This document shows positions 17,503 through 37,480 of a stretch of 64,000 bases of DNA, piece by piece. The notes beneath the pieces were generated by a model that had not been told where the DNA came from, ran no database searches, and saw only the letters and a list, made by a program, of their open reading frames with translations. The stretch is from the NCBI GenBank assembly GCA_947628965.1, contig CANRBV010000001.1, positions 41,225 through 105,224 on the forward strand. The letters run 5' to 3'. Position 1 is the stretch's first letter, and each line of letters begins with the position of its first letter. Source of the stretch: an uncultured Bacilli bacterium. GTDB taxonomy: Bacteria; Bacillota_I; Bacilli_A; RF39; UBA660. Position numbers and translations under genes: made by a program.

Positions 17503-17522
17503 TTTTATTCTTCCTTTCTTTA

Positions 17523-18467: not shown

Positions 18468-18521
18468 TACTATTTTATCATAATCAAAAAAGAAGATACA
18501 AAAATTTGAACTTCTTTTTTC

Positions 18522-19889
18522 CTACTTGACACAATTTACGCTTTTAGCATATTCATTTCGATATTCTAATAGTTTTTCTTTTACTTTAGAATTAGCATAA
18601 ACTTTTATTTCTACATCATCCATACTGTTTGCAACAATGGTTTTCTTTTTTAAATTGGTAATCATATCTTCAAAAAATTTTTTATAGTCTAGATTATATG
18701 TAGCATAACGTAATCTTAAAATGTGATATTTCCCTGTTTCTTCTATAGTTGGTTTTATTTCTACTGTACTATATTTATCATTATAGGAATAAACAACTTT
18801 AATTTGATTATCTAGATTATCGTCCACTAAAATATTTTTAGCAGGTATAGCTGTACTCACAACAAAGTTGGGAAGAAAATCATAGTAAAATTCTTCTTCG
18901 GCATTCTTTTGTTCATAAATGACTTGCGTAGATGCAAATTCAATCGTACAAATTCCACAACCAATTCCGAGTATAAGGAAACAACTTAAGGAAACAATTA
19001 ACAAAACATTAATTCTATTTTTACGATTAAAGATAAAGTTAAAGACAAAAATAAAGATGAAAATACCTAATAGTAATAAAGAAATAAAGATTAGATAAAG
19101 TCCAAAATAAGTGACACCTTTGAAGAGTAAATAGGTAGATACGCCTACAATGCAAGACATTCCTACTAAAAAGAAAGCCCCACCAATTAAAATTAAGAAT
19201 AAAATTCCTTTTACAAAAAATATTCCAATACGAATTAATACATTAAAGAAATTTTCAAAGAAAGAAGAATCAGGTTCATTACTTCTTGGTTCTTTTTTTA
19301 TTTTTACAGAACTTTTTCTTTTTTCATTTACTATAATACTACAATCTTCCTTTAAAAAACAACTTTGGAAAAGTTTTACAAAAAACAATACCGCAAAAAG
19401 AAAATATGCCATTTCTAAAATAAAATTCCAAAGGTTATAAAATAAATGATAAATTGCATAATGAGAGTTGATTACTGTTAAAATATTGTTTCCAACATCT
19501 GCTATAAAAACAAATGGAATTTTACATAAACCTGTTAAAAGAATGATAAAGAAAAGTTCAATCATAAACTTCATAATATCTCGAAAACTTTTATGAGCAA
19601 AAATATTACACGTATATTCAAACATTTTTACGAATATATCAACAAAGTTATTAAAAAAATCTTCTTTTTGGTTTTCTTTTTTATTTGTTTTTATTTTATA
19701 AGCACTTAGTAAATCACTAGCCAGTTCCTCAATATTTCCCATTGATTTTACGGCTTCCACTTCCGTACAACCATCACTCATTTTTTCTTCTATGTAACCT
19801 TCATATTCGTTTAAGATATCTAAAATTTCACTTTCTTCTAAAATGGATAATTTTTTTCTTAACGTTTCTAAAAATTTTTCTTTATTCAT
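18522..19889 (-). CDS. DUF1700/HAAS-domain polytopic membrane protein (PadR-associated sensor)
   Basis: N-terminal LETLRKKLSILEESEILDILNEYEGYIEE signature; multiple TM helices; overlaps the PadR gene. Confidence 0.7.
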   Translation of the reverse strand: MNKEKFLETLRKKLSILEESEILDILNEYEGYIEEKMSDGCTEVEAVKSMGNIEELASDLLSAYKIKTNKKENQKEDFFNNFVDIFVKMFEYTCNIFAHKSFRDIMKFMIELFFIILLTGLCKIPFVFIADVGNNILTVINSHYAIYHLFYNLWNFILEMAYFLFAVLFFVKLFQSCFLKEDCSIIVNEKRKSSVKIKKEPRSNEPDSSFFENFFNVLIRIGIFFVKGILFLILIGGAFFLVGMSCIVGVSTYLLFKGVTYFGLYLIFISLLLLGIFIFIFVFNFIFNRKNRINVLLIVSLSCFLILGIGCGICTIEFASTQVIYEQKNAEEEFYYDFLPNFVVSTAIPAKNILVDDNLDNQIKVVYSYNDKYSTVEIKPTIEETGKYHILRLRYATYNLDYKKFFEDMITNLKKKTIVANSMDDVEIKVYANSKVKEKLLEYRNEYAKSVNCVK

Positions 19890-20214
19890 TTTTTTCCCTA
19901 CCTTCTATAAAAGAATTCACACTACTTGCAAAACGCGTCCATTCCTTTTTTTGTTCTTTGGTGTATTTCTTTCCTAATGCTGTTATATGGTAATACTTTC
20001 TTATTGGTCCTTCACTTGATTCTTCTAAATACGTTTCAAAATAGCCCTCATTGGTAAGTCGTTTTAGTATCGGGTAGATTGTTCCTTCATTAACATCGAC
20101 AATTTTACTTACCTCTTCTACTAGTTCATAGCCATATTTGTCTTTTTTTTCAACAATTAGTAAAACCAATAACTCCAATACCCCCTTTTTAAATTGTGTA
20201 TTTATCGTAACCAC
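19882..20214 (-). CDS. PadR-family transcriptional regulator
   Basis: GYELVEEV...GTIYPILKRLTNEGY winged-helix signature. Confidence 0.85.
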   Translation of the reverse strand: MVTINTQFKKGVLELLVLLIVEKKDKYGYELVEEVSKIVDVNEGTIYPILKRLTNEGYFETYLEESSEGPIRKYYHITALGKKYTKEQKKEWTRFASSVNSFIEGREKNE

Positions 20215-20280: not shown

Positions 20281-22560
20281 TTATCGTAAAGCCTCTACGG
20301 GATCTTTCTTACTTGCTAATTTGGCAGGAATCATTCCTCCAATTAAAGTAAGTCCTACGCTAGAAAGTATTAAAATAAGAGCGTGCAAAGGATTTAACAA
20401 AGCAATATTTTTTAATTTTGTTAAATGATAAAAAATGGAATTTATCGGTATTAAAAGTAATTTAGTTATTAAAATTCCTAAAATACCCGAAGAAAACCCA
20501 ATTAAAAAGGCTTCTGCGTTAAAAACTCTGGCTATATCTTTTTTTCTTGCTCCTAAACTTTTTAAAATGCCAATTTCATTGGTTCTTTCCAAAACCGAAA
20601 TGTACATGATAATACTGATCATAATGGAAGAAACAAATAAACTAATAGCACTAAATGCCACTAAAACAATCGTTATTGCATTCATAATATTTTGCAAGAC
20701 CGAAGATAGTGCTTTAGCTTCATCCTTATAAATAATTTGGTTTTCACTCTTCTTTCCATCGTTATAACGATCTAAATAATTCACTATTTTTTCTTTTGAT
20801 GTAAAATCTTTTGGATAGATTTGAATTGTATGTGGAATGGATTCATCCCCTAGAAAAGCTAAAGTTTGTTTTTTTAAAATTTGCCCTTCTTCATTTGCAA
20901 TATTGTAAGTTTCTCCTGTTAAAACGTTATACTCTTTGTTTTGTTGGTCTTTTACAATAGCAGAGTCTTTATTCTTAAGCATGATATAAAATGGTAAATC
21001 ATTCATATAGTAAAGTCCTGCCGTATCTACATAATCTTTATATTCTTCTTTTAAACGAATAATTCCTACCACTTTTAATGTAAGTGTATCTTTATTATCA
21101 TAAAGAGAATCTAAATTAGGATTGATTCTATAAAAGTCGCCATCTTTTTGATAATATTGATCATTAAATACTAGTTTTAAAGTACTTTCTAATATATGTT
21201 CAAAAGATATGGTTTCTTCAGACCCTAATCCTAAAGCATGGATTATATCTTCTTGAACCTGATTTTTGCTATCAACAACCAAAAGAAGTTCATCTTTTAC
21301 TTTGGCCATACGTCCTGCTAATATATCATATTTTTCACTTAAAAAACCTTCATTTTCTTCTTTTAAACTTTTAGGAAAACTTTCTAGAATGCTCGCATCA
21401 ATCGGTATTACTTTATCATCTATTTTATTAATTACATTTAATCTTGTATAATAAGAATAACTAATACCACTTATTATGGTCGGATTTATTTTTTCAAGGT
21501 ATGTTAAAAATTCTTTGTTTATATGATTTTGTTCCTTTATTACTTCTTTTGGTTTTTCTTTTTTTATTGCATAATCAATAGTTGGATACTCTTCAAACTC
21601 TTGAGTAGTTTCTTCTTGGCTCGATCTTGCCTCTATTTGATTTTGAATCACAATTGGCATTGCAGCCATTGTATTTTGTTCCAATACTTTTAGTTGACGA
21701 TTAAACCCATTTGATAGACTTAGGATTAAAGCAATTCCAATAATCCCAATACTGGAGGCAAAACTTATGGCAAAGGTTCGACCTTTTTTGGTTCGAATAT
21801 TATGAAAACTCAAATAAAGAGCTGATAAAAAATTCATTGAAGTTTTTTTAAATTTATCTTTTTTTGGTTCTTCTTCTAATTCTAATACTGGATTTGAATC
21901 ACTTATAATTTTTCCATCACACATCCTAATTACCCGCGTTGCATAATTCTGAGCTAGCTCTTTATTATGCGTAACCATAATCACTAACTTGTCCTTTGCA
22001 ATTTCCTTTATAAGGTTCATAATTTGAATTGAAGTTGTGGTATCTAAAGCCCCTGTCGGCTCATCAGCCAAAATAATGTCAGGATTACATACAAGTGCTC
22101 TTGCAATAGCTACTCTTTGCATTTGTCCTCCAGATAATTCTTTTGGTTTTTTGTGTATGTGTTCTTTTAAGCCAACTTTTTCTAACATTTCTTTTGCTAC
22201 ATGTCTTCTTTTTTTAAAAGAAATTCCTCTTAAAGCCAATCCCATTTCTACATTGTTTAAAATACTTATATGGTGAATTAAATGATAACTTTGAAAAATA
22301 AAACCAATGCAATGATTTCGATAAGAATCCCAATCACAAGTTTTAAATTTTTTAGTAGACTTATTATGAATAAGTAAATCTCCTGTATCGTAGTGATCTA
22401 ATCCGCCAATTATATTTAAAAGGGTTGTTTTGCCACTTCCACTTGGTCCTAATATTGCAACAAATTCATGACTTCGAAATTTTAATTGAACATTCTTTAA
22501 TGCAACTTGTTTAAAATTTCCTGTTTTATAACTCTTCGTAATATTTTTTAATTCTAACAT
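20281..22560 (-). CDS. Fused ABC transporter ATP-binding/permease protein (MacB/FtsX-like)
   Basis: Walker A GPSGSGKTT; LSGGQ signature; Walker B ILADEPT; C-terminal FtsX-type permease helices. Confidence 0.9.
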   Translation of the reverse strand: MLELKNITKSYKTGNFKQVALKNVQLKFRSHEFVAILGPSGSGKTTLLNIIGGLDHYDTGDLLIHNKSTKKFKTCDWDSYRNHCIGFIFQSYHLIHHISILNNVEMGLALRGISFKKRRHVAKEMLEKVGLKEHIHKKPKELSGGQMQRVAIARALVCNPDIILADEPTGALDTTTSIQIMNLIKEIAKDKLVIMVTHNKELAQNYATRVIRMCDGKIISDSNPVLELEEEPKKDKFKKTSMNFLSALYLSFHNIRTKKGRTFAISFASSIGIIGIALILSLSNGFNRQLKVLEQNTMAAMPIVIQNQIEARSSQEETTQEFEEYPTIDYAIKKEKPKEVIKEQNHINKEFLTYLEKINPTIISGISYSYYTRLNVINKIDDKVIPIDASILESFPKSLKEENEGFLSEKYDILAGRMAKVKDELLLVVDSKNQVQEDIIHALGLGSEETISFEHILESTLKLVFNDQYYQKDGDFYRINPNLDSLYDNKDTLTLKVVGIIRLKEEYKDYVDTAGLYYMNDLPFYIMLKNKDSAIVKDQQNKEYNVLTGETYNIANEEGQILKKQTLAFLGDESIPHTIQIYPKDFTSKEKIVNYLDRYNDGKKSENQIIYKDEAKALSSVLQNIMNAITIVLVAFSAISLFVSSIMISIIMYISVLERTNEIGILKSLGARKKDIARVFNAEAFLIGFSSGILGILITKLLLIPINSIFYHLTKLKNIALLNPLHALILILSSVGLTLIGGMIPAKLASKKDPVEALR

Positions 22561-22740: not shown

Positions 22741-23640
22741 TTAAATTTTATTTTTTTTCTTCTTTTTAATAAGAAAATATCCACCAAGCACAAGAAGCAA
22801 AGCAACAGCAAAACTAATTAAAATGTATTTTAAATTAAAAGTTTTTGTTTCTTCTTGTTCATTTTCTTCAAGGATTTCATTTTTTTCATCTGTTTTGTTT
22901 TCTACTTCATCTTCTTTACTTACATCTGTTTCGTTTGTATTTGCATCATTATTTATAGTATTGTTGTTTTCAGTAGTAGTATTAGAACTTGCATTATTAT
23001 TAGTAGTAGTAGTACTTGTATTCTTATTCGTAGTACTCGTATTTTTATTTTCTTCTTTTTCTTTATCTTGTTCTTTATTTTTATCGGTACTAGAAGACTC
23101 CTCTTTAGAAGAAGTATCTTCCTCTTGGTTTTCACTACTATTTATTTTATAAGTAAAGTTGTTTTTTTCAACTTCAGGAGTAATTTCATGAGACTTCCAA
23201 GCATTATCTAATGTTGTTAAAGACCCACATTGAATCGTATAGGAGATATCTTTTTTACTAGAAGTATCAAATAGAATATTTCCTAGTACTAAATCTTTAT
23301 CGATATTTAATAAATTGTGACTTGTTCCTACGCCACCTGTTACTACAACAATATTTAATTCTTTTGTTTTATCATCATAAGAAGTTTTTGTAGTAAAATT
23401 ACTACTTGTTAGTTTGCTATCTAAATTCATTTTTTGAAAGTTGATATTTCCATCTACTTTTAACGTAATATCAAGTCCTCCAATAAAACCATCTTCAAAA
23501 TGTAAAACGGATTTTATATTTCCATTACCCTCTTCGTGAAAAGTTAACTTTGTTGCAGCGTTTACAGAAGAAAGAGAAAGAAATAAACTGAGTACCAAAG
23601 TGGTAACAATTTTTATAAATGTTCTTTTCATTCTCTTCAC
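22741..23640 (-). CDS. Secreted membrane-anchored surface protein: N-terminal beta-rich (possibly cohesin-like) module, S/T/N/E-rich linker, C-terminal TM anchor
   Basis: Signal peptide; about 150-aa beta-strand-type segment; low-complexity linker; C-terminal hydrophobic helix + KKKKKNKI tail; 4-nt overlap with the giant upstream gene. Confidence 0.6.
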   Translation of the reverse strand: MKRMKRTFIKIVTTLVLSLFLSLSSVNAATKLTFHEEGNGNIKSVLHFEDGFIGGLDITLKVDGNINFQKMNLDSKLTSSNFTTKTSYDDKTKELNIVVVTGGVGTSHNLLNIDKDLVLGNILFDTSSKKDISYTIQCGSLTTLDNAWKSHEITPEVEKNNFTYKINSSENQEEDTSSKEESSSTDKNKEQDKEKEENKNTSTTNKNTSTTTTNNNASSNTTTENNNTINNDANTNETDVSKEDEVENKTDEKNEILEENEQEETKTFNLKYILISFAVALLLVLGGYFLIKKKKKNKI

Positions 23641-26600
23641 CTCTTATTACTAATTTCCATTTGTTTTAACTTACTATATTCTTTTAAATCCTTTAGAACA
23701 ATTGATGTACTTGTTAATCGTTGTCCTTCATGCGTAATAGCATCATTTACACGATATAGATAAGCTCGAATACTGGTGCTAGACTTTCTCATTTTTTCGT
23801 ATTCTTCTTTACTCATAACATATAGCCACGTTCCATTTGCAACATCATAAACCGTATGATCACTATTTAATTCAGCAAAGATTAATTGATATCCGCCATA
23901 GACTTTTGCCTCATCATTACTATCTGCAATTAATACTGTATTAAACGCAGGGTTACCACGATAAGAACCTTCTATAACAACAGATCCAGCTGTAATTTTA
24001 CCATCTGGGTCGTTTTCACAACCACTTTCTAAATAACAATAATCACTTGTTAATACACCAATATTTGTAATATCGACATTATCTCCTGGAGGAGCAATCA
24101 CATCAATTTCTGCACCAGATAAAACATTATTACCATCAGATTCAATCTTAATATAATTTATATCATTATAAGTCCATAATTGACTTTCACTATCAGTATT
24201 TTGTCCCATGAAGTAAATGATTTCTTCTGGTTTTTCGCTTGTTAAAGTAAACGTACCTTTTCTTGCAAGATGCCAATCATTATCATTTCCTGTAGAACTT
24301 ACATATACTTTATATTTAGTAATTGTATTTTCATCTAGTTTATCATTTTCTACTAAGGCATGATACTTAATACCACTTACAGACATTCTATTATTTAAAT
24401 TTAATAAAACATAAGCATTTCCATTATCCACTGTAATACTTGGTTTATCACTGGTTTGATTTAAAGTTTTTACTTTTTCTGTGCCTTTAAATCCTGTTTC
24501 AATTTTACCATCAATTAAGTTGTTTACTTTTAATGTAGCATAATCCATTTCTTCGTTTTCATTATCGACAATTTCATTTGCTTCTTTTACATTTGAAGTA
24601 ATACTAAAGGCATCCTTTTTAACACTACCATCATGACTTATTTTTACTTCTTCTAAAGTAACTTCATTCGTTTTATGTAAATAATAATCATAAGCAACCA
24701 CACTATATGTATAAGCTCTATTATTTTCCGCTCCAACGTTGTCAACAAATTCATTCGTACCCTTTTCAACAAAGCCAATAGAAACACCATTACGAAGAAT
24801 TTCATAACCTAAAATCTTATCGTTGTCTTTATTAACATTAAACTCTAAAGTAACACGTTTATTTTGACTATCAGCATCTCTAATAGAAGATTCTAAAATA
24901 TTGGCACCTTCATTAATTCCAACACTTTGACGCAAAGCAAAACGTCTTGCTTGATCATTTAAGTAGTAAATCGCTCTTTTTTCTTTTGCATAGTTTAATT
25001 CTTGTAATTCTTCTTTTAAAGAGCTAGATGCTTTTAATCCCCAAATTTCAAAAAAGTTCGTTAAGTCTTTCTTGACAGCCATACAAGCATAAAGAATAGT
25101 TAAATCGTCTCTAGAATAATTTTTGGTATTCTTATATGTACGAGCAATTTTATTTATTTTTGCGTAAATTGAATTTTGATCTTCAAATGTTTTTTCATTA
25201 TCATAAGCAAGATGTAATTGCCAGTACATTCCTAACTGAACAAAAACATTTTGAGCTCTTCCCGTTGTATGGGAAGTTACTTTTTCATAAATTTTATCAT
25301 AACCATTGTTTTCTAAACGGGAAGGATCACTATCATTGCTTGTTTGAGCAAGCAAAGAATAAATATTATTCGTTACTTCTGCAAAAACAGTATCTTTTAA
25401 ATTGATTTGATGTCCAACTTCATGACTAATACCCCATCCAAAATAACCTGTTTTGGTATTACTATTGCGACTGGCTTGAACAAGGCCTGCAATTGAACCA
25501 TATTCAATGCCTATATGGTAACCTCCAGCATACATAAAAGCTCCATCAAACATTTGCATATAACGAACATTAATTCTCGCTTTTGGCATTTTATCCGTTT
25601 TTTCTGTTTGGTCTGTATCACTAAATCCTTTTTGACGATAGAATAGTTCCATCATTTCATCGAAGGCTTCCATAGATTCATATAAACGATTTGTTTTTTC
25701 TTCAATGGTTTTTTTATTTGATTTTAAAGCATCTTCTACAGCTACACTGGAAACGGACAACAAACCGTATTTTGTTACAATTTCTGTAGAGCCTAAAACA
25801 CTTTTTTGTTTATCAAAGCTTTTTCCGATAGATGCATAAGCACTTTCTAAAGTACTATTGTAATTTTCTAATTCTTTAATATATTTTTTTATTGCTGCTT
25901 TTTTATCTGTCTCATTTTCCAATAAGGTTGTATCAACCATTGGAATTTTAGTTCCTCCACTTACACGCACTTTTATTGGATTAGTAGTACTAGGTGTACT
26001 TGTATAGCGAATATAAACGCTTCCACCACGTTCATCAGTAGAAGAACCAATTTGTGGAACTGTAATAATATTTAAACCCTTATGTAAACTTTCCGTTGTA
26101 TAAGCTTTATTCCATTCACTTGCTTCAGCATGGTATTGAGTAAATATCACTTGGGCATTAATTGCCCCATTACTTCCAACATAAACATTGATTGTCTCTC
26201 CAGGTCTAGCAACAATTCCTAAAGGTTGATAATCACTAATCGTCATTGCAAATTTAACATGACCATTATACGAATTGGAAATGTTTGGATTTAGAGTAAT
26301 AACATCATCAATATGTTCATCATTTAATATTTTCTCCGCATAATCCAAATCTGCAAGTACGCTATCTTTATAAGGAGAATACTCTCCATTATCTTGTTCA
26401 TTTGCTCTTTTTCTTAATTCATTAATTTGCTTTTGATCTACGCCCTCTGCTAGGACAAGACGAAGATCGTCTGTAAATAAGGCAGCAACATCGTCCACTA
26501 ATGAATCGTAATGATAAAATTTTACTTCATCAATTTTAATATCACGAACATTTCCAGCAACAGTTAATCCAAATGCTACCGCTTTAGCAGTAATTGGATT

Positions 26601-28808
26601 TTCTAATTTTAATACATAGTATTTACGTCCCTTTTCATCTTGTTTTGAAAGAAGGGTTCCTTTTACTTCTTTACGCTCTGTATTGTCATAAATCTCTTGG
26701 TTAGACTCCCAATAATGCAATTTAACATCATTGCTATTTGGTCCACCAGATTTTAAAGAAGCCGCATAATTATCTGGAACTGTTAAGACAAATTCATCCA
26801 TTTGATAGGCATTATCTAAAACAATCACTGGGGTTCCTAAGTTGTAAGCACCATTTGCTGAAATTTGCCAATCATTATGATACCAATAAGTGTCATAATG
26901 GTCATCAACAATCGCAAATTTATTATCATTCGTCATGGTTCCCGTATGATAGAATACGTTTTCAATATGATCAGTTTTCTTATTTTTTTGATCATAACCA
27001 CTATTAATTAATTTATATTTTGGTACAATTGCAGCACCTGCTTCTTTCGTAGTTGCTTTTACTAAAGTATAACTATCACTTTCTCCTAAGTCATTTACTC
27101 CAAGTACATAAGCTTCATATTCAGTATCAGCTTTTAACCCACGTACAGAATAACTATTTGTCGAAATAGATTCTACAACAGAATAAACAGCCGTTCCAAC
27201 TTCACGATAATATAATTTATAAGATTTGGTATCGTCCATTTTTTTCCAACTAAAGTCTATTCCTCCATAGGTAGGAGTTGCAACCACCATATCTACTTTT
27301 GGTGGTTTTCTTGTTGCTTGTGGAGTTCCTTCGTGAGCATCACTCCAACCACTACGCCATTCTTGATTTACAGATTGAACGTATATATAATATGTTTCAT
27401 AATTTTTTAAATCTTCAATTGTAAAGGTTGTAAAAGTAGTTTGGAAAATAACTCCACTTTCCATTTTAGGCCCTACAATCTTAATTTCATAACCTGTTAC
27501 ATTTGGTACATCGTGAAAAGTAATAGTTAGTTGTTCACTTTTTGTATCATCAACATGAATATTTTGAGGAACATAAAATCCATCTGGTTCTTTTGTTTTT
27601 GTTTTAACATTATTTAAAAATTCTACTTTTGCTATATCTGCTAAAGTATTTGAAGAAGTTTCGGTAATTATAATAGTTACTTTTTTAACAGCAACTTGTT
27701 TTCCTAAGTCTACTTTAATTGTCCCTTCACTTGCTTCGTCTGTAAATAAATGTACTTCATTTAAACCTTGTAAAGTATCATCTACTTCATATTCAAGAGT
27801 TTCATTATCCTCTGTTAAAACGAGTAATTTCATTTTTTTAGGAATATTTTCTTCTCCTATTCCAATTCTAATTTCACTCATTTCAACAGTTTCACTATTA
27901 GAATTTTTTCCTAAATCAAGTGCAAACTCAATTGGATTATCTATAGAAATAGCTTCTTCATTTGCAGATTTTAAAGTTACAATTCCTGTATCACTAAATA
28001 AATCACTTAAATTACTTTCCTCACTAATTGTTGTTCCATTTGCTACTTCTAAAGACACATTTTCATTATTCATGATAAGACTTGTATTTTCAATTTTAGC
28101 ACTTTCTTTTTTAGAATTTAAAATTGCTGTTATGTAATTTAAATCTGCAATATCAACAACTCCATCTAAATTTAGATCATTTTTCGTGTCATTATTTTTA
28201 ATAGATTCCATTAAAATCTCTTCATCTTTTTTATTTACTTGATTGTCTTGATTTACATCACCAATTTCAAACATTCCAGCTTCATTAGATAAACTTATTC
28301 TTTTAGAAAAATCATCTAAAGTAACATCTACGCTATAGGTTACAAAATGGTTCCCGCTAAGTTCTAAAGTATACTTTCCTGTATTTAGTGAATATAAATT
28401 CATACTATAGTAAACTATATTTTCACTAGTAACGTCTCCTGATAAAACAAAACCATTCGTATTTCGTTTTGTAATTAAAGAACGGATAGTTTGTGTACCT
28501 AATTTAATAGAAGTTTCTAAAATACCATCTTTAGCGTTTTTCATTTCATTTAATGAAATAGAGGCTTTGTTATTATTTTCATCAATAATGGATAAAGCAA
28601 TATTTGTTTCTTCTCTATTTCGAAAAGGAAGAGCTAAATGAAGTTCTACTTCTATATTCCCTTTTTCTTGTATATCTCCTAAAGCAATACTACGAGTTTC
28701 TTCCCTTGTTTCCATTGCCAAAACAATTAAAGGTGAAAAATTATAAAAAAGCATTGCCCATATTAATAAGATTGATACTAGTTTATTTAAAATTTTCATA
28801 CTAACCAC
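23637..28808 (-). CDS. Giant secreted multidomain protein (1723 aa) with dockerin-like Ca-binding repeats, FN3-like modules and an M60-like/enhancin-type HExxH zinc-peptidase domain
   Basis: Signal peptide; GDVNQDNQVN...DLNLDGVVDIADL dockerin repeats; GWGISHEVGHQ zinc-binding motif. Confidence 0.7.
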   Translation of the reverse strand: MVSMKILNKLVSILLIWAMLFYNFSPLIVLAMETREETRSIALGDIQEKGNIEVELHLALPFRNREETNIALSIIDENNNKASISLNEMKNAKDGILETSIKLGTQTIRSLITKRNTNGFVLSGDVTSENIVYYSMNLYSLNTGKYTLELSGNHFVTYSVDVTLDDFSKRISLSNEAGMFEIGDVNQDNQVNKKDEEILMESIKNNDTKNDLNLDGVVDIADLNYITAILNSKKESAKIENTSLIMNNENVSLEVANGTTISEESNLSDLFSDTGIVTLKSANEEAISIDNPIEFALDLGKNSNSETVEMSEIRIGIGEENIPKKMKLLVLTEDNETLEYEVDDTLQGLNEVHLFTDEASEGTIKVDLGKQVAVKKVTIIITETSSNTLADIAKVEFLNNVKTKTKEPDGFYVPQNIHVDDTKSEQLTITFHDVPNVTGYEIKIVGPKMESGVIFQTTFTTFTIEDLKNYETYYIYVQSVNQEWRSGWSDAHEGTPQATRKPPKVDMVVATPTYGGIDFSWKKMDDTKSYKLYYREVGTAVYSVVESISTNSYSVRGLKADTEYEAYVLGVNDLGESDSYTLVKATTKEAGAAIVPKYKLINSGYDQKNKKTDHIENVFYHTGTMTNDNKFAIVDDHYDTYWYHNDWQISANGAYNLGTPVIVLDNAYQMDEFVLTVPDNYAASLKSGGPNSNDVKLHYWESNQEIYDNTERKEVKGTLLSKQDEKGRKYYVLKLENPITAKAVAFGLTVAGNVRDIKIDEVKFYHYDSLVDDVAALFTDDLRLVLAEGVDQKQINELRKRANEQDNGEYSPYKDSVLADLDYAEKILNDEHIDDVITLNPNISNSYNGHVKFAMTISDYQPLGIVARPGETINVYVGSNGAINAQVIFTQYHAEASEWNKAYTTESLHKGLNIITVPQIGSSTDERGGSVYIRYTSTPSTTNPIKVRVSGGTKIPMVDTTLLENETDKKAAIKKYIKELENYNSTLESAYASIGKSFDKQKSVLGSTEIVTKYGLLSVSSVAVEDALKSNKKTIEEKTNRLYESMEAFDEMMELFYRQKGFSDTDQTEKTDKMPKARINVRYMQMFDGAFMYAGGYHIGIEYGSIAGLVQASRNSNTKTGYFGWGISHEVGHQINLKDTVFAEVTNNIYSLLAQTSNDSDPSRLENNGYDKIYEKVTSHTTGRAQNVFVQLGMYWQLHLAYDNEKTFEDQNSIYAKINKIARTYKNTKNYSRDDLTILYACMAVKKDLTNFFEIWGLKASSSLKEELQELNYAKEKRAIYYLNDQARRFALRQSVGINEGANILESSIRDADSQNKRVTLEFNVNKDNDKILGYEILRNGVSIGFVEKGTNEFVDNVGAENNRAYTYSVVAYDYYLHKTNEVTLEEVKISHDGSVKKDAFSITSNVKEANEIVDNENEEMDYATLKVNNLIDGKIETGFKGTEKVKTLNQTSDKPSITVDNGNAYVLLNLNNRMSVSGIKYHALVENDKLDENTITKYKVYVSSTGNDNDWHLARKGTFTLTSEKPEEIIYFMGQNTDSESQLWTYNDINYIKIESDGNNVLSGAEIDVIAPPGDNVDITNIGVLTSDYCYLESGCENDPDGKITAGSVVIEGSYRGNPAFNTVLIADSNDEAKVYGGYQLIFAELNSDHTVYDVANGTWLYVMSKEEYEKMRKSSTSIRAYLYRVNDAITHEGQRLTSTSIVLKDLKEYSKLKQMEISNKR

Positions 28809-28877
28809 CTGTTAATATTATATAGTATGACCTAAATTCTGACAATAGACTTTTAAACTTTATGAAAAATTTTTTTA

Positions 28878-31163
28878 TTATCGATTTTTTTCTTTATATG
28901 ATATATCTCGTTTAATGGAATATAATTTTATTAATTGTTCATAACTTATTTGTATTACTTTTCCACCTTTAGGATTTATCTTATTTCCGAAAACAATCCA
29001 AATAACATCCATAGGAATATCAGGCATACTTGCTATTCCATCAGTAAATATTATTTTATTTTCAACTCTTTTAGTAAATGCGCGAACAGCTACATTAAAG
29101 TCAGTTCCACCATTTCCTTCAAGTCCTTCAAATCCCATATTTTCAATATCTGCTTCAGTTCTTATTTCGTGAAAGCCATAAAATTTCGTATCAAAACAGC
29201 CAACTTTTATCTTTGAGTACGGTAAGATATTTAAACATTCTCTTAAAAAATTTTTTAGCAATCTTTCATTTACAGAACCGCTTGTATCCAATAAAATTTC
29301 TGTTTCTGCCTTTGGTTGTTCTTCTAAATTAGCATGTATAACGTCGTCTTCAATATAGGCATTTTTATAAGACCAATCAACATCGTATTGAATTGGTTCT
29401 TTTAATATATATCTCCAATCTATTATCGGTTTAGATTTTCCTATATCATTTATGATTCTCTGTTCGCTATTAGTAGATGTTCCAGCTTCCATTGCTTCTT
29501 GAGATACAGTTTCTATTGCTTGTTGAGATAAAACTTGCTTTAATTCTTCTAATTCTTTTCTCTTTTCTTCTAAATTTTTTTTAAAAGCGCTTTTCTCGCC
29601 CATTTTACTAATTTTGCCTATCTCTTGTTGTAATCTTTTTTCTTGTTGATTTTGTTCTTCCATTTGTTGCTCATCATCTTGAAATTCTTTTTTATCTTTT
29701 GATTCAGCTTCTTTTAGTTTTTTTACTGCATCTTTCCACATACTATGAGTATCATGACCTACATCATCATTTTGTTCTTCAGAAGGAATTGATTCTGATG
29801 AAGAAGTTCCTTGCCCTTGTGATTGATTTTCATTTTGATTTTGAGATTCATCTAAAGAACTTTGGGATTGATCTTGTGATCTTTGTTCAGATGTGCCCTG
29901 TTGATTTTGTGATGAACTTGTTTGTTCCTCACTTTTCTCTTCATTTTGTTCATTAGATTGAGATTCTTTTTTATTTTTTGATACAGCTTCTTTTAATTTT
30001 TTTACTGCATCTTTCCACATACTATGAGTATCATGACTTACATTATCATTTTGTTCTTCAGAAGGAATTGATTCTGATGAAGAAGTTCCTTGCCCTTGTG
30101 ATTGATTTTCATTTTGATTTTGAGATTCATCTAAAGAACTTTGGGATTGATCTTGTGATCTTTGTTCAGATGTGCCCTGTTGATTTTGTGATGAACTTGT
30201 TTGTTCCTCACTTTTCTCTTCATTTTGTTCATTAGATTGAGATTCTTTTTTATTTTTTGATACAGCTTCTTTTAATTTTTTTACTGCATCTTTCCACATA
30301 CTATGAGTATCATGACTTACATTATCATTTTGTTCTTCAGAAGGAATTGATTCTGATGAAGAAGTTCCTTGCCCTTGACCTTGTTGTCCTTGTTTAGAAG
30401 ATGATGAACTTTGTTGATTTTGTTGTGAATTGGATTGTTCTTGATTTTGTTCTTCATTTTGAGTTTCAGAATTTTGCCCTTGTGATTGATTTTCGTTTTG
30501 TTTTTGAGAACCTTTTGAAGAACTTTGCCCTTGACCTTGTTGCCCTTGTTTAGAAGATGATGAACTTTGTTGATTTTGTTGTGAATTGGATTGTTCTTGA
30601 TTTTGTTCTTCATTTTGAGTTTCAGAATTTTGCCCTTGTGATTGATTTTCGTTTTGTTTTTGAGAATCTTTTGAAGAATTTTGCCCTTGATCTTGTTGTC
30701 CTTGTTCAGAAGATGATGAACTTTGTTGATTTTGTTGATTACCTTGACCATTTTGTCTTTTACTTTGTTGCTTTTCTTTAAGTAATTTATCATAAAACTC
30801 TTCTGCATCGTAATTTATTGCTTCTGCAATATCTACTACACCATCAACAAGTTTCAACCCATCTCGTTTTAAAAATTGATTTATTACACCATCTGTTGCT
30901 ATATTCCAAACATAAGGATCTTTATTTTCACTTCTTCTTATATGATCAAACGCTATATGGCATACCTCATGAGCAAATATAAAAATTTGTTCATCTGTGT
31001 TAAGATTTTTTAAAAATTCTAGATTATAAAATATCGTTTGTCCATCAGTACATGCAGTTGATATTTTTTTATTCTCTCTATAGTTTACATTTGCAACTAC
31101 ACTCCCAAAGAAAGGGTATTTTACAAGCATTTTTCTTTTTACAGATTCAATATTAAAGTCCAT
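28878..31163 (-). CDS. HExxH metallopeptidase-like N-domain + long Q/S/N/E-rich repeat region + C-terminal vWA domain (COG3864/DUF2201-like, MoxR partner)
   Basis: FIFAHEVCHIAFDH (HExxH); C-terminal LLDTSGS MIDAS (DxSxS) motif; sits with a MoxR-like AAA ATPase. Confidence 0.7.
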   Translation of the reverse strand: MDFNIESVKRKMLVKYPFFGSVVANVNYRENKKISTACTDGQTIFYNLEFLKNLNTDEQIFIFAHEVCHIAFDHIRRSENKDPYVWNIATDGVINQFLKRDGLKLVDGVVDIAEAINYDAEEFYDKLLKEKQQSKRQNGQGNQQNQQSSSSSEQGQQDQGQNSSKDSQKQNENQSQGQNSETQNEEQNQEQSNSQQNQQSSSSSKQGQQGQGQSSSKGSQKQNENQSQGQNSETQNEEQNQEQSNSQQNQQSSSSSKQGQQGQGQGTSSSESIPSEEQNDNVSHDTHSMWKDAVKKLKEAVSKNKKESQSNEQNEEKSEEQTSSSQNQQGTSEQRSQDQSQSSLDESQNQNENQSQGQGTSSSESIPSEEQNDNVSHDTHSMWKDAVKKLKEAVSKNKKESQSNEQNEEKSEEQTSSSQNQQGTSEQRSQDQSQSSLDESQNQNENQSQGQGTSSSESIPSEEQNDDVGHDTHSMWKDAVKKLKEAESKDKKEFQDDEQQMEEQNQQEKRLQQEIGKISKMGEKSAFKKNLEEKRKELEELKQVLSQQAIETVSQEAMEAGTSTNSEQRIINDIGKSKPIIDWRYILKEPIQYDVDWSYKNAYIEDDVIHANLEEQPKAETEILLDTSGSVNERLLKNFLRECLNILPYSKIKVGCFDTKFYGFHEIRTEADIENMGFEGLEGNGGTDFNVAVRAFTKRVENKIIFTDGIASMPDIPMDVIWIVFGNKINPKGGKVIQISYEQLIKLYSIKRDISYKEKNR
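29690..30790. repeat. Intragenic near-identical tandem repeats: 3 x 279 nt (about 29690-30370) and about 2.7 x 156 nt (about 30370-30790)
   Basis: Read in the DNA (gatacagcttcttttaatttttttactgcatctttccacatactatgag... at 29701/29980/30259; ccttgaccttgttg[t/c]ccttgtttagaag at 30373/30529/30685). Identical antisense ORFs offset by 279 nt in the track. Confidence 0.9.
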
Positions 31164-31173
31164 AATTTATTCC

Positions 31174-33804: not shown

Positions 33805-36177
33805 TTATTTATCTCTTAATTTTGCTTTAAATGTTTCTTCTACTTTTTTTATTATTGCATTAAAAACTTCCATTACTTCTTCTTCTTGTAAAGTTCTTGT
33901 TTCATCTTTAAAGGTTAATTTATAAGCAATAGATTTTTTACCCTTTTCTATTTCAGGATATAAATCAAATACTTCACAAGTTGATAATATTCTTTTTCCC
34001 GTGTGAACAATTTCTTTTTTAATGCTTTCACTATCAATTTCGTTCGCTACAATAAAAGCTACATCTTTTACAATTTCTGGATATTTATTTGCTTCTTTAT
34101 ATTTTATAGGTTTAATACTTGCTTGATCTAAAATATTCATAGAAAGTTCACAAACAAAAAGTTCTTCTTTTAAAATATTTGGGTGTATTTTACCAATAAT
34201 ACCTACTCTTTTCTTATCTAGATAAATACTTGCACTAACTCCTGGATGTAAGGAATCTATTTCTTCACTTACAAAAGAAAAACGATTTTTAAAACCTAAG
34301 TAGGTAAGTAAGTTTTCAACTATTCCTTTTAATAAATAAAAGTCTGCTTTAATATTTATTCTTTGCCATTCATTTGTTAGATAGTTTCCTTTCATTAAAA
34401 TTGCTATTTTTGTTGTTTCATTAAAATCTTTATCATAAGTTTTAGCAATTTCATAAATATTGACATCCTTAACGTTTCTCTTTTTATTATATTCGTAGGT
34501 ATTTAATAAAGAGGGTAAAATGCTTGTACGAATAATACTTTTATCAACACTCATTGCATTTGGTAAAGTAATTGGTTCTTTTTGATCATAACAAAATAAT
34601 TTAGCCATTTCAGGACTAATTAAGGTATATGTTTTTACTTCGTTTAAACCAAGTGTTCTTAAACGTTTAGAAATTTCTTTTCGTATTTTAACATCTCCAA
34701 CATATTCTCCCATTCTAGTACTGGCAGTAGGCAAAGTAGAAATTAAGTTATGATAACCATAAAGTCTTCCAATTTCTTCAGCAATGTCGTTTACATTTGC
34801 ATCAATATCTAATCTCCTACTTGGAATTGTTACCATAAATACATCTTTTTCTAAAGTATAAGGAAAACCTAAACGATCCAATTCTTTTTCCATATCTTTT
34901 GTTTCAATAACTATACCAAGCATTTTATTTACATCTTCGGCTTTAAAATTAACTATTTTTGGTGTTTTATCGATTACATCATGTTTTACAGTATCCTTTA
35001 GTATAGTTGCATTAGCGTATTTTTCAAGTAAATGACAAGCTCGGTTAATAGCCATATTTGTATACTCATAACTTAAACCTTTTCCATAGCGAATAGATGC
35101 TTCGCTTTTTAAATTCAAATGACTTGCTGTATTTCGAATAGAAACAGCATCAAAAATTGCACTTTCTATTAAGATTGTTTTCGTATTTTCATCAACTTCA
35201 GTATTTTCTCCCCCCATAACTCCAGCGATACAAACTGGTTTATCGCCATCGGTAATTACAATATCGCTTGATTTTAAAGTTCTCTTTTTACCATCCAAAG
35301 TAACAATTTGTTCGTTTTCCTTAGCATCACGTACTAAAATATGATCTTTTAATTTCTCCTTATCAAAAAAATGAAGAGGTTGTCCAAATTCAAGCATAAC
35401 ATAGTTAGAAATATCAACAACATTATTAATTGGGCGCATTCCAGCAGCAGTAAGTCTTTTTTTAATAAATTCTGGACTTTCTTTAATTTCAACATTTGTT
35501 ACCATTTTGGCAAGATAATAAGGGCATTTTTTAGTTTCGACTTCTAATTTAAAATGATTTTTTATAGAATCACTATTTTCTTTATATTCTAGATTTGGTA
35601 ATGTTACTTTTTTATTTAGAATAGAAGCAATTTCATATGCGAAACCAATATGATAAAAACAATCATTATTACGATGTTTATGAATATCTAGTTCATACAA
35701 AGTATCATCATAACCTAAATATTTTAGTGCATCTACACCAACTGATGCTTTATTATCAACTTCATAAATTCCTTTTTGATAATTTTCTTCTGTTTTTTCT
35801 TCTAGTCCTAATTCAAATAAAGCGCAAAGCATACCATTGGATTCTACCCCACGAATTGTACTCTTTTTTATTTCAAAATCTCCAGGAAGTATTGCTCCTG
35901 GCAAAGCAACAATCACTTTTAAACCTGCTTTTACATTTGGGGCTCCACATACAATTTGGTAAGTCTCTTTTTCATTTACTTTTACTTGGCAAATATGCAA
36001 ATGGTCGCTATCTGGATGCGGTAGACATTCTAAAACTTCTCCAATTACTAAATGATCAATATGGTTCGTTATTACTTTTTCTACATTAATTCCAGCTTTC
36101 GTAATTTTTACTGCTAATTCTTTTAAATCCTCATCTTTAATATCTACATAATCACTTACCCACTCTAAACTAATCAT
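33805..36177 (-). CDS. pheT: Phenylalanine--tRNA ligase beta subunit
   Basis: MISLEWVSDYVD N-terminus; tRNA-binding, B3/4, B5 and FDX-ACB layout; follows pheS. Confidence 0.9.
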   Translation of the reverse strand: MISLEWVSDYVDIKDEDLKELAVKITKAGINVEKVITNHIDHLVIGEVLECLPHPDSDHLHICQVKVNEKETYQIVCGAPNVKAGLKVIVALPGAILPGDFEIKKSTIRGVESNGMLCALFELGLEEKTEENYQKGIYEVDNKASVGVDALKYLGYDDTLYELDIHKHRNNDCFYHIGFAYEIASILNKKVTLPNLEYKENSDSIKNHFKLEVETKKCPYYLAKMVTNVEIKESPEFIKKRLTAAGMRPINNVVDISNYVMLEFGQPLHFFDKEKLKDHILVRDAKENEQIVTLDGKKRTLKSSDIVITDGDKPVCIAGVMGGENTEVDENTKTILIESAIFDAVSIRNTASHLNLKSEASIRYGKGLSYEYTNMAINRACHLLEKYANATILKDTVKHDVIDKTPKIVNFKAEDVNKMLGIVIETKDMEKELDRLGFPYTLEKDVFMVTIPSRRLDIDANVNDIAEEIGRLYGYHNLISTLPTASTRMGEYVGDVKIRKEISKRLRTLGLNEVKTYTLISPEMAKLFCYDQKEPITLPNAMSVDKSIIRTSILPSLLNTYEYNKKRNVKDVNIYEIAKTYDKDFNETTKIAILMKGNYLTNEWQRINIKADFYLLKGIVENLLTYLGFKNRFSFVSEEIDSLHPGVSASIYLDKKRVGIIGKIHPNILKEELFVCELSMNILDQASIKPIKYKEANKYPEIVKDVAFIVANEIDSESIKKEIVHTGKRILSTCEVFDLYPEIEKGKKSIAYKLTFKDETRTLQEEEVMEVFNAIIKKVEETFKAKLRDK

Positions 36178-37222: not shown

Positions 37223-37239
37223 TTTTTCTTCCTCCTTAA

Positions 37240-37480
37240 AATTAAAAAAGCCCCTTACAAATGTAAGGGACGAAATATAATCCGCGGTACCACCCAAATT
37301 CTAGAAATTTTCTAGCACTTATTTTAGATTTAACGCATCTGTACGATAAAATTAAAGCAAGTGAATTTCGCATTTATTCTTTATCTTTAGATAGTTTCAG
37401 CGTACCCTATCTAATCTCTGTTTGAAGATAGAATAAATCTACTTAAAATTGCTCTCAAACATTTTATTGAGTTTATTATA
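37240..37480 (-). promoter_or_regulatory. T-box riboswitch leader of pheST with intrinsic terminator (37244-37269)
   Basis: T-box conserved sequence AAUUUGGGUGGUACCGCGG on the minus strand (37282-37300); followed by cccuuaca-uuu-uguaaggg hairpin + U-run; ends immediately 5' of pheS. Confidence 0.8.

Follow-up and report, generated by a model that had tools for sequence, protein, structure and literature searches.

A two-gene unit that is likely to display a mucinase on the cell surface was found on the minus strand of the 64-kb stretch of gut-bacterial DNA analysed here (the window). The first gene encodes a giant, dockerin-bearing peptidase of the M60 kind, and the second encodes a small protein with a predicted cohesin-like domain and a membrane anchor. 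Such a surface-display cassette, in which the peptidase would be tethered by a dedicated one-to-one cohesin-dockerin pair, had been proposed by a first-pass annotation of the same DNA. The proposal gains support from the domain identities, the predicted folds, the conserved synteny, and the swapping of anchors among relatives, and each of the checks suggested with it that could be computed spoke for it. The pair recurs in many gut Firmicutes, and it probably keeps the protease on the cell surface.

Layout of the locus

Both ORFs were found where the first-pass annotation had placed them, at 23637..28808 (1723 aa from GTG) and at 22741..23640 (299 aa from GTG) on the minus strand. The true starts are probably ATG codons located 9 nt within each ORF. 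The GTG listed as the start of the giant ORF sits within a Shine-Dalgarno sequence, and the Shine-Dalgarno sequence of the small gene overlaps the stop codon of the giant gene (Table 1). Lengths of 1720 and 296 aa are also given by independent gene calls and by database proteins (for the giant, P0003 with 1720 aa). With the internal ATG starts, the 4-nt overlap that had been claimed is probably a 5-nt gap, and the tight packing is retained. Just upstream of the giant gene there is a tentative promoter-like site, which would imply a very short leader; promoter-like sites in the region showed no enrichment over shuffled sequences.

Table 1. Positions of the two genes and their features in the window
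Feature	Position	Strand	Basis or remark
Promoter-like site TTGTCA-17-TATAAT, 11/12 matches	28817..28845	(-)	Consensus scan only; tentative
Shine-Dalgarno AGGTGG of giant gene	28805..28810	(-)	5 nt before probable ATG; read from sequence
Giant gene	23637..28799	(-)	1720 aa from probable ATG 28799; ORF reaches GTG 28808 (1723 aa)
Predicted Sec signal peptide, giant protein, MKILNKLVSILLIWAMLFYNFSPLIVLA	28716..28799	(-)	N-terminal hydrophobic peak; cleavage site inferred by eye
N-terminal module, ~140 aa, between signal peptide and dockerin	28293..28715	(-)	Without assigned function
Internal dockerin, aa 182-233 (1723-aa numbering)	28110..28265	(-)	Pfam Dockerin_1, family profile, AF2 model, fold matches
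Ca loop 1 of dockerin, aa 184-195	28224-28259	(-)	Helix after loop
Ca loop 2 of dockerin, aa 211-222	28143-28178	(-)	Helix after loop
Two fibronectin type III modules, ~aa 408-597	27018..27587	(-)	Pfam fn3 E 4.4e-12, two stretches; FN3 matches in PDB
M60-like_N domain, aa 848-950	25959..26267	(-)	Pfam PF17291, 25.1 bits vs cut-off 23
Peptidase_M60 catalytic domain, aa 1042-1257	25038..25685	(-)	Pfam PF13402, E 1.3e-19, 71.2 bits vs cut-off 25.8
Zinc-binding motif HEVGH, aa 1129-1133	25410..25424	(-)	Read from sequence
Third zinc ligand candidate Glu1144	25377-25379	(-)	Read from sequence; 10 residues beyond second His (HEVGH-X10-E intact)
Shine-Dalgarno GAGGTG of small gene	23638..23643	(-)	Overlaps TGA stop of giant gene (23637-23639); read from sequence
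Small gene, cohesin-like membrane anchor	22741..23631	(-)	296 aa from probable ATG 23631; ORF reaches GTG 23640 (299 aa)
Predicted signal peptide, small protein, MKRTFIKIVTTLVLSLFLSLSSVNA	23557..23631	(-)	Hydrophobic peak; cleavage site by eye
Predicted cohesin-like beta-sandwich domain, 142 aa, aa 26-167 of 296-aa protein	23131..23556	(-)	AF2 and Foldseek
Low-complexity E/N/T/S/K-rich stalk, ~100 aa	22828..23130	(-)	Composition
C-terminal membrane helix and tail	22744..22827	(-)	Predicted helix YILISFAVALLLVLGGYFLI at 22768-22827, then basic tail KKKKKNKI

The giant protein is an M60 peptidase with an internal dockerin

Judged from its sequence, the giant protein is a secreted, dockerin-bearing Peptidase_M60 protein. 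Residues 832-1383 align with the Clostridium perfringens O-glycopeptidases ZmpB (5kdn, E 2.6e-26) and ZmpC (6xsz, E 6.1e-26), which are its nearest solved relatives. The zinc-peptidase motif, already assigned to the M60 type in the first-pass annotation, lies in the catalytic domain given in Table 1. The FN3-like repeats noted earlier were recovered as two Pfam fn3 stretches. F5/8-type-C (CBM32-like) modules are present in relatives, while the window's giant protein gave no significant match to them. The predicted signal peptide and the two dockerin-type segments are both present, but they do not follow each other directly as had been described; a module of ~140 aa lies between them. This module had no significant match in Pfam, and a faint PF28033 match was found in some homologues.

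The protein carries two 12-residue Ca-loop motifs, DVNQDNQVNKKD and DLNLDGVVDIAD, with a spacing of 27 residues. By profile and by predicted fold, this loop pair is a dockerin. The window segment alone is a borderline match to Pfam Dockerin_1 (profile positions 2-56 of 57, E 1.1e-4, 22.8 bits versus a cut-off of 22.9), whereas the family is clearly of dockerin type: a profile of 42 dockerin segments matches solved dockerins at E 2.5e-9 to 1e-5, among them that of C. perfringens NagH (2jnk/2ozn, E 5.8e-6), and EF-hand proteins rank far behind. The AF2 model shows a loop-helix-loop-helix arrangement with two helices (core pLDDT ~90). Its seven best fold matches are dockerins, the first being that of C. 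perfringens NagH (2ozn_B, rmsd 1.9 A, 30% identity). The double loop D-x-N-x-D-x3-D/N-x2-D is found at the same N-proximal position in ~100 of 115 homologues (100% down to 32% identity). The window dockerin is internal and, with 27 residues between its loops, unusually compact.

The small protein has a predicted cohesin-like domain

The layout first described for the small protein, namely a signal peptide, a ~150-aa module, an S/T/N/E-rich stalk, and a C-terminal TM segment, agrees with its composition and with its N-terminal and C-terminal hydrophobic peaks, the latter at aa 263-272 in 19-residue windows. In the stalk region (104 aa), E and N make up 20% each, T 18%, and S and K 12% each, and DNA tandem repeats lie at 22974-23085 inside its coding part. 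An LPXTG motif is absent from the C-terminus, where the NCBIfam LPXTG_anchor model stayed below its cut-off (13.4 versus 15.9) and covered the helix and tail only. The database-family matches of the small protein were low-complexity noise only.

For the N-domain of the small protein, a cohesin-like beta-sandwich is predicted with high confidence. The AF2 model of the 142-aa domain, computed from a 45-sequence alignment, has a pLDDT of 95.4 and a pTM of 0.88. Every one of the 30 best matches in a Foldseek search against the PDB was a cohesin (probability 1.00, E from 1e-6 to 6e-5), with types I, II, and III all represented. Cohesins made up ~44 of the top 50 matches, and the remainder, from rank 31, were YcnI and one CLIPPER adhesin domain. 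These matches are of moderate quality, with TM 0.55-0.67, rmsd 4-5 A, and 9-19% identity, and the likeness may result from convergence on the jelly-roll sandwich. Thus, the earlier assignment of a cohesin-like N-domain stands at the level of the predicted fold but not at that of sequence: Pfam gave no match for any of the 45 family members, none of the PDB sequences was matched by the family profile at E<=10, and the hhalign probability was 0.5% when the comparison was made with a shallow cohesin profile built from three C. thermocellum sequences. Conservation within the family is highest in two loops (residues 20-26 and 73-87), not in the strands of the classical dockerin-binding sheet. A search of 1.84 billion proteins, with the window's domain as the founding member of the aligned family, yielded 74 representatives at 50% clustering, and those examined share the architecture of the small protein.

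The gene pair is conserved while its anchor is exchanged

Is this pairing found in other genomes? In 20 of 20 distinct loci examined, which range over rabbit-gut Bacilli, Clostridium botulinum, C. ihumii, Clostridioides, Enterocloster, and Ruminococcus, the gene directly downstream of the dockerin-bearing M60 gene encodes a signal peptide and a cohesin-like domain; the match to this domain is only marginal in the Ruminococcus locus (L014). The pairing persists down to 32% identity of the peptidase. In the reverse test, two divergent cohesin-like members (24% and 32% identical) were each found 1-3 nt downstream of an M60 gene. Since the flanking genes are not conserved, the M60 gene and the cohesin-like gene form a syntenic unit of their own. 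In six-frame HMM searches of the loci (DNA up to 10 kb on either side), a single dockerin and a single cohesin-like domain were found in each locus. The 64-kb window likewise contains exactly one of each. A dockerin with DLNLD goes with the cohesin-like loop TTGGxGxxHNLLN in 13 loci, and a dockerin with DLNRD goes with a shortened loop in 6 loci. This covariation follows clade boundaries, so shared ancestry could account for it.

Several types of anchor follow the cohesin-like domain. Rabbit-gut Bacilli and Erysipelotrichaceae have a stalk and a membrane helix, Ruminococcus has LPQTGN with an adjoining sortase gene, C. botulinum and Enterocloster have choline-binding repeats, and Clostridioides and C. 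ihumii have three CW_binding_2 modules. Such a pattern, in which the N-domain is kept and the wall or membrane anchor is exchanged, is characteristic of anchoring scaffoldins.

Proposed mechanism and alternatives

The product of the first gene would be a secreted zinc metallopeptidase of ~190 kDa, multimodular and of the M60 O-glycopeptidase (mucinase) type, with one compact dockerin near its N-terminus in which a helix would follow each of two Ca2+-binding loops. The second gene, 5 nt downstream and probably co-translated, would yield a type I membrane protein in which a signal peptide is followed by a single, divergent domain of cohesin fold, a stalk, a C-terminal membrane helix, and a basic cytoplasmic tail. 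The hydrophilic stalk of ~100 residues would be long enough to span the wall zone. Once the proteins are exported, a one-to-one, Ca2+-dependent complex would form between the peptidase's dockerin and the cohesin-like domain. The mucinase would thus be kept at the cell surface, where O-glycosylated host proteins, presumably including mucin, would be cut beside the cell.

Alternatively, the small protein may be a co-expressed surface protein that has a cohesin-like fold but does not bind the dockerin. It might be a mucin or host adhesin, or an anchored inhibitor, immunity factor, or maturation factor binding the catalytic domain or another domain of the peptidase. This is rather unlikely. All of the 30 best structural matches are cohesins, though non-cohesin sandwiches appear from rank 31, the sequence of the N-domain carries no cohesin signal, and the loops are better conserved than the canonical binding sheet. 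The strict synteny would suit any obligate partner, not just a dockerin receptor. However, the dockerin is the one module of the giant protein that keeps a fixed position across the family down to 32% identity, and cohesin binding is its only well-established role. Furthermore, the anchors swap while the N-domain stays, as in anchoring scaffoldins, whereas in an adhesin the binding domain should be the part that varies.

It is quite improbable that the dockerin serves another receptor elsewhere in the genome (a canonical cohesin, a multi-cohesin scaffoldin, or a wall polymer) or acts as an intramolecular Ca2+-dependent structural module, with the neighbouring gene separate in function. An internal dockerin is atypical of docking modules, and dockerin enzymes of C. 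perfringens and of Limousia mucinolysomes bind cohesins from other loci, according to PMC12997984. In the 20 loci, however, one dockerin and one cohesin-like domain adjoin across families and anchor types, and the two change together between clades. The window has no further dockerin-like or cohesin-like-family module, a count that covers 64 kb of its own genome. Finally, an artefact or chance adjacency of generic EF-hand-like Ca loops and an unrelated low-complexity membrane protein, as the 0.1-bit shortfall of the window dockerin in Pfam and the noise-only family matches of the small protein might suggest, is effectively refuted by the synteny in 20 loci to 32% peptidase identity and by the dockerin profile matches well ahead of EF-hand proteins, and the confident model and the 74 representatives of the cohesin-like family, alike in architecture where examined, also argue against it.

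Comparison with known systems

A close precedent for the tethered-mucinase reading is given by OlpA and OlpC of Clostridium thermocellum, anchoring proteins whose single type I cohesin binds the dockerins of enzymes directly on the cell surface. As in OlpA and OlpC (PDB 3UL4, 4DH2), there is one cohesin per anchor protein with the surface anchor at the other end, and the enzyme would likewise be docked directly and one-to-one, without a multi-cohesin scaffoldin. In the fold search with the N-domain, both structures ranked among the best matches (4dh2_A, TM 0.67; 3ul4_A, TM 0.63). In contrast, OlpA and OlpC have SLH modules and canonical, Pfam-detectable cohesins, while the present domain is undetectable as a cohesin by sequence and is followed by a membrane helix (in relatives, by LPXTG, choline-binding repeats, or CW_binding_2). 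Their cargo consists of plant cell-wall enzymes that have C-terminal dockerins and are encoded at other places in the genome, whereas here an M60 peptidase with an internal dockerin is encoded by the adjacent gene.

The catalytic core is homologous to ZmpB/ZmpC (PDB 5KDN, 6XSZ) and the M60-like/PF13402 family, which are similarly large and multimodular with FN3 modules. Co-occurrence of M60-like with Dockerin type 1 was noted in 2 proteins by Nakjang et al. 2012 (PMC3267712). No cohesin partner or anchoring gene for M60 peptidases was described in the literature searched.

In C. perfringens, the dockerin of the NagH mu-toxin is bound to the X82 cohesin of NagJ (PDB 2OZN; Adams et al. 2008, reference 78 of PMC12997984). 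This is also a gut Clostridium cohesin-dockerin pair acting on host glycoconjugates rather than cellulose, with a single cohesin per partner, and the window dockerin finds its best structural match in that of NagH. However, the C. perfringens partners are both glycoside hydrolases paired enzyme to enzyme (PMC12997984). Unlike in the unit proposed here, neither partner serves as a dedicated anchor, nor do the genes lie side by side, and no M60 peptidase has been reported for the C. perfringens cohesin-dockerin toxin network.

The mucinolysome of Limousia (Acutalibacteraceae) is described in PMC12997984 (Gut Microbes 2026; preprint PMC12632915) as a cellulosome-like mucin-degrading complex. It resembles the system proposed here in that mucin-degrading enzymes of animal gut bacteria, including dockerin-bearing peptidases, are assembled by cohesin-dockerin interaction on a sortase wall-anchored scaffoldin; the term M60 is absent from that paper. 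According to the same source, the complex has 3-6 scaffoldins, which carry as many as 12 canonical cohesins, and its dockerin-bearing glycoside hydrolases number up to 22. In contrast, the system found here has one enzyme and one Pfam-undetected cohesin-like domain, paired at the operon level, and its taxonomic range is much wider.

Gene layout and start codons

The G+C content of the window is about 27%, and nearly every gene lies on the minus strand. Both ORFs were found where the first-pass annotation had placed them, at 23637..28808 for the giant protein (1723 aa from GTG) and at 22741..23640 for the small protein (299 aa from GTG). Read from these GTG codons, the two ORFs have the tetranucleotide GTGA in common. 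The GTG codons are probably not the true start codons. In the giant gene, the GTG sits within the Shine-Dalgarno sequence AGGTGG, and an ATG lies 5 nt past it, at 28799. In the small gene, the Shine-Dalgarno sequence GAGGTG overlaps with the TGA stop codon of the giant gene, and an ATG follows 6 nt on, at 23631. The database copies of the two proteins are 1720 aa and 296 aa in length, and on three metagenome contigs, gene calls made independently begin the small gene 5 nt past the stop codon of the giant gene. Thus, the 4-nt overlap proposed earlier is confined to the ORF level, while the probable ATG starts leave a spacing of 5 nt. The packing of the two genes is tight, and they are probably co-translated. 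The positions of the features are collected in the table below.

Positions of the domains of the giant protein, of the genes around the cassette and of the partner genes of related loci
Feature	Position	Strand	Evidence or remark
Dockerin	giant protein aa 182-233; window 28110-28265	minus	after a ~140-aa module without family assignment
M60-like_N	giant protein aa 848-950		Pfam, 25.1 (cut-off 23)
Peptidase_M60 (PF13402)	giant protein aa 1042-1257		Pfam, 71.2 bits (cut-off 25.8), E 1.3e-19
Zinc motif HEVGH	giant protein aa 1129-1133; Glu1144 ten residues on (X10)		read from the sequence
fn3, two modules	giant protein		Pfam
HAAS-domain protein	window 18522..19889	minus	downstream of the cassette
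PadR regulator	window 19882..20214	minus	downstream of the cassette
MacB-like fused ABC_tran+FtsX transporter	window 20281..22560	minus	downstream of the cassette
DUF2201_N metallopeptidase-like + VWA-like DUF2201 gene	window 28878..31163	minus	interrupted by a long Q/S/N/E-rich insert
pheT	window 33805..36198	minus	phenylalanyl-tRNA synthetase, just upstream
pheS	window 36170..37297	minus	phenylalanyl-tRNA synthetase, just upstream
C. botulinum partner	18 nt downstream		A1 domain (E 1.5e-16), then choline-binding repeats
Clostridioides species partner	next gene		A1 domain (E 7.6e-8), then three CW_binding_2 modules
C. ihumii partner	next gene		A1 domain (E 7e-22), Bact_surface_Ig-like module, CW_binding_2
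Ruminococcus MAG partner	region 14879-16658 of L014		~230-aa Thr-rich repeat stalk, LPQTGN + hydrophobic tail
Enterocloster partner			choline-binding repeats

The giant protein is a dockerin-bearing M60 peptidase

The giant protein begins with a hydrophobic, signal-peptide-like segment. Its assignment as an M60/enhancin-type zinc peptidase was borne out by the Pfam Peptidase_M60 match, by the HEVGH motif with its Glu and by homology to ZmpB and ZmpC. The M60 zinc motif was reportedly defined by Nakjang and colleagues in 2012 as HEXXHX(8,28)E, with the Glu 8-28 residues past HEXXH, and the HEVGH-X10-E of the giant protein fits this pattern. Among solved structures, the closest relatives of the giant protein are ZmpB (5kdn, E 2.6e-26) and ZmpC (6xsz, E 6.1e-26), both O-glycopeptidases of C. 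perfringens, followed by further M60 glycopeptidases, BcM60C among them. The giant protein is thus a member of the M60 (M60-like/enhancin O-glycopeptidase) family, and its predicted activity is O-glycan-dependent cleavage of mucin-type glycoproteins. The FN3-like repeats seen earlier correspond to two fn3 modules in Pfam.

The first-pass annotation described a signal peptide followed by two dockerin-type segments. The dockerin is present, but a ~140-aa module lies between it and the signal peptide. It consists of two tandem 12-residue EF-hand-like Ca2+ loops, DVNQDNQVNKKD and DLNLDGVVDIAD, with Asp or Asn at positions 1, 3, 5, 9, and 12, and the Ca-ligand columns are invariant across 42 homologues. 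Taken alone, the window segment scores 22.8 bits against Pfam Dockerin_1, whose cut-off is 22.9 (E 1.1e-4, profile positions 2-56 of 57). Many homologues have a precomputed PF00404 match, and the double Ca loop occurs at the same position in about 100 of the 115 relatives of full length, whose identity ranges from 100% down to 32%. With a profile of 42 dockerin segments, solved dockerins, including that of C. perfringens NagH, were found with E-values from 2.5e-9 to 1e-5 and ranked above EF-hand proteins. The AF2 model has a loop-helix-loop-helix arrangement with helices 22-33 and 49-60 directly past the loops (core pLDDT ~90). In a Foldseek search with this model, the best seven matches are all dockerins, the top one being the NagH dockerin (2ozn_B, rmsd 1.9 Å, probability 0.98); the small size of the domain makes for weak E-values (0.7-3). 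Thus, the identity of the dockerin, borderline by the Pfam score, is settled by the homologues, the family profile and the predicted fold. Repeat 2 is better conserved than repeat 1 (mean column identity 0.85 versus 0.64 for the loop and 0.66 versus 0.41 for the helix), and this hints that binding occurs in one asymmetric mode.

The N-domain of the small protein has a predicted cohesin-like fold

The small protein is composed of a signal-peptide-like N-terminus, a 142-aa domain (the N-domain), a 104-aa E/N/T/S/K stretch, a hydrophobic helix and the tail KKKKKNKI. The signal peptide, the S/T/N/E-rich stalk and the C-terminal TM anchor proposed earlier can all be seen as sequence features. In the stalk-coding DNA (window 22974-23085), there are short imperfect tandem repeats with periods of 27, 21, and 18. 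LPXTG-type sortase anchoring of this protein is not supported: the LPXTG motif is absent from the window protein, and the NCBIfam LPXTG_anchor match, which covers the helix and the tail only, is below the cut-off (13.4 versus 15.9). Other Pfam and NCBIfam matches of the small protein (PFF1_TM, CD1107-like, MutL, and others) were discarded as low-complexity noise.

Is the N-domain cohesin-like, as the first-pass annotation guessed? The N-domain has no match in Pfam, NCBIfam or the PDB sequences (phmmer included). A word-indexed homologue search returned near-identical copies of the small protein only, and one fragment when the family alignment was used, while 74 relatives of the N-domain emerged when 1.84 billion representatives were searched exhaustively. 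Leaving aside two giant repeat proteins and a small number of fragments, these relatives are 207-373 aa in length, and all five that were inspected in full length have the architecture of the window protein. The family alignment A1 was made from 45 of the 74. Pfam Cohesin (PF00963) matched neither the window domain nor any of the 45 family members at E<=10, the A1 profile had zero matches among the PDB sequences by hmmsearch at E<=10, and hhalign of A1 against a shallow C. thermocellum cohesin profile (three sequences) gave a probability of 0.5%.

The AF2 model built from A1 is very confident (pLDDT 95.4, pTM 0.88). It is all-beta; DSSP assigns 11 strand segments and a single short helix. When this model was compared with the PDB by Foldseek, each of the top 30 matches was a type I, II, or III cohesin (probability 1.00, E 1e-6 to 6e-5, TM 0.55-0.67), and cohesins made up about 44 of the 50 best matches. 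On this predicted structure, the N-domain probably fits the nine-stranded, ~140-residue jelly-roll beta-sandwich of cohesins. Thus, the cohesin-like guess is upheld for the predicted fold, whereas membership in a cohesin sequence family is not, since Pfam, the PDB profile search and hhalign were negative.

The best-conserved parts of A1 are two loops, residues 20-26 (FEDGFIG) and 73-87 (TGGVGTSHNLLN), and not the strands of the sheets. This pattern in the alignment cautions against taking the canonical cohesin interface for granted. Two database proteins, P0182 (2351 aa) and P0188 (2404 aa), were considered as multi-cohesin scaffoldins and rejected. Both are repetitive surface proteins, each matching the N-domain in seven weak stretches at marginal E-values (~1e-5 to 1e-4), and they appear to be unrelated arrays of repeated beta-sandwiches.

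The two genes are paired across genomes

I scanned one genome per species for relatives of the giant protein and found 15 loci, with identities from 87% to 32%. Some are located in MAGs of uncultured rabbit-gut Bacilli, the others in an Erysipelotrichaceae MAG, in a Ruminococcus MAG and in Enterocloster alcoholdehydrogenati. In all 15 loci, the product of the gene that follows downstream starts with a signal peptide and an N-terminal domain and continues into a surface-anchoring region. The match of the A1 profile to the partner domain is strong in 13 of these loci, weak in Enterocloster and marginal in Ruminococcus. In the Ruminococcus locus (L014), a sortase gene of its own directly follows the partner gene (Pfam Sortase, E 4e-26), which makes a three-gene version of the cassette. 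In the reverse direction, two divergent A1 members were picked blind to their context, and the gene of each proved to follow an M60 gene at a distance of 1-3 nt.

When all loci were searched in six frames with HMMs, each had exactly one dockerin, in the M60 protein, and a single A1 domain, encoded by the next gene; the 64-kb window likewise has one of each and no more. This one-to-one synteny of the dockerin and the cohesin-like domain holds in 20 of 20 loci. The genes flanking the cassette differ between loci, and thus the M60 gene and the partner gene form the conserved unit. A multi-enzyme cellulosome or mucinolysome would have several such modules; what was found in the DNA of each locus and in the 64-kb window is a single cohesin-like domain per partner and a single dockerin. 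The partners have the attributes of non-catalytic anchoring proteins, namely a membrane helix in the window protein and LPQTGN with a sortase, choline-binding repeats or CW_binding_2 modules in its relatives. The partner proteins examined range from 259 to 373 aa in total on a constant ~140-aa N-domain, and this spread suggests that the stalk grows and shrinks through repeat slippage.

The sequences of the two domains also vary together. Among 19 loci, a dockerin with DLNLD in loop 2 goes with TTGGxGxxHNLLN in the cohesin-like domain, and one with DLNRD goes with a shortened loop. Since this covariation tracks phylogeny, it is consistent with co-evolution but is no proof of it. Binding of the dockerin by the N-domain has indirect support from the one-to-one synteny and from this clade-level covariation. 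The conserved A1 loops, the conserved dockerin repeat 2 and the tracking of DLNxD with loop length may be the sign of a non-canonical, single-mode interface. The dockerin-cohesin contact may be centred on the loops, with clade-specific specificities of a DLNLD type and a DLNRD type.

Genomic neighbourhood

A mobile-element origin in the window was dismissed; with pheS and pheT just upstream, the flanks are chromosomal and the cassette lies in an ordinary chromosomal context, not on a phage or plasmid. Between these genes and the cassette is a three-gene group (window 28878-33494, minus strand), in which the DUF2201 gene is followed by a 131-aa gene and then by a gene for a weakly AAA_5-like ATPase. 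The insert of the DUF2201 gene is built from tandem repeats that are near-perfect at the DNA level (279 bp x2.5 at 98% identity, 29679-30377; 156 bp x2.4 at 97%, 30369-30737). The genes of this group have no homologue in the 87%-related locus (L011), and thus the region is variable. Downstream, the transporter, PadR and HAAS genes look like an efflux or sensing module under PadR control, and elsewhere this group adjoins the cassette in the closest relative only.

There are hints that the cassette may sometimes lie at the edge of an integrated element. L002 and L004 are two loci of rabbit-gut MAGs. In both, a gene for a large serine recombinase (Resolvase + Recombinase + Zn_ribbon_recom) lies downstream of the partner gene at a distance of about 1 kb, at 17279-18919 and 17265-18884, respectively.

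Proposed mechanism and significance

The evidence fits best with a minimal anchoring system, and I consider this tethering model likely. The dockerin of the exported peptidase would attach to the one cohesin-like domain of the partner. The partner in turn would be fixed to the membrane in this bacterium and, in other lineages, to the wall, and its hydrophilic stalk would keep the cohesin-like domain clear of the membrane. A constant binding domain joined to an anchor that matches the envelope chemistry of each lineage is hard to explain unless the N-domain holds the product of the neighbouring gene. The first-pass interpretation of the two genes as a tethering unit is supported in this sense; I infer the dockerin-cohesin contact itself, its Ca2+ dependence, the membrane topology and the mucin substrate.

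I also lean slightly towards a broader reading, in which the N-domain is the founder of a cohesin family that is cryptic at the sequence level and has so far escaped recognition, and operon-encoded 1:1 pairs with an internal compact dockerin tether giant M60 mucinases on many gut and pathogenic Firmicutes. The carriers under this same joint claim would be C. botulinum, C. ihumii, Clostridioides spp., Enterocloster, Ruminococcus, Erysipelotrichaceae and the rabbit-gut Bacilli.

If the pair binds, it would explain how the widespread, very large M60 O-glycopeptidases are retained on the surface of gut commensals and clostridial pathogens, with a bearing on the erosion of the mucus barrier and on who benefits from the freed glycopeptides. 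Cohesin-dockerin systems would then extend well past the reach of Pfam-based surveys, and censuses of cellulosome-, amylosome-, and mucinolysome-like systems would undercount, since sequence profiles miss this cohesin-like family. The partners would represent a natural experiment in which one docking domain is combined with four anchoring solutions. They would also provide a set of small, orthogonal dockerin-cohesin pairs of possible use in designer surface display.

Comparison with known systems

A literature search found no earlier report of a cohesin partner or an anchoring gene for M60 peptidases. Dockerin type 1 is listed in two M60-like proteins in the domain co-occurrence table of Nakjang et al. 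2012 (PMC3267712). The recently proposed Limousia mucinolysome combines dockerin-bearing peptidases with a sortase-anchored scaffoldin, and the paper makes no mention of M60 (PMC12997984). This mucinolysome and the non-cellulosomal cohesin-dockerin toxin complexes of C. perfringens are the nearest biological analogues of the cassette. The nearest functional analogues are OlpA and OlpC, the single-cohesin anchoring proteins of C. thermocellum, both of which are among the top fold matches of the N-domain. The cassette differs from the known systems in that it is one-to-one and operon-encoded, in that its cohesin-fold family is beyond sequence-profile detection, in its internal and compact dockerin, and in its four kinds of anchor. 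It is a broadly distributed extension of cohesin-dockerin biology to mucinases rather than a new principle.
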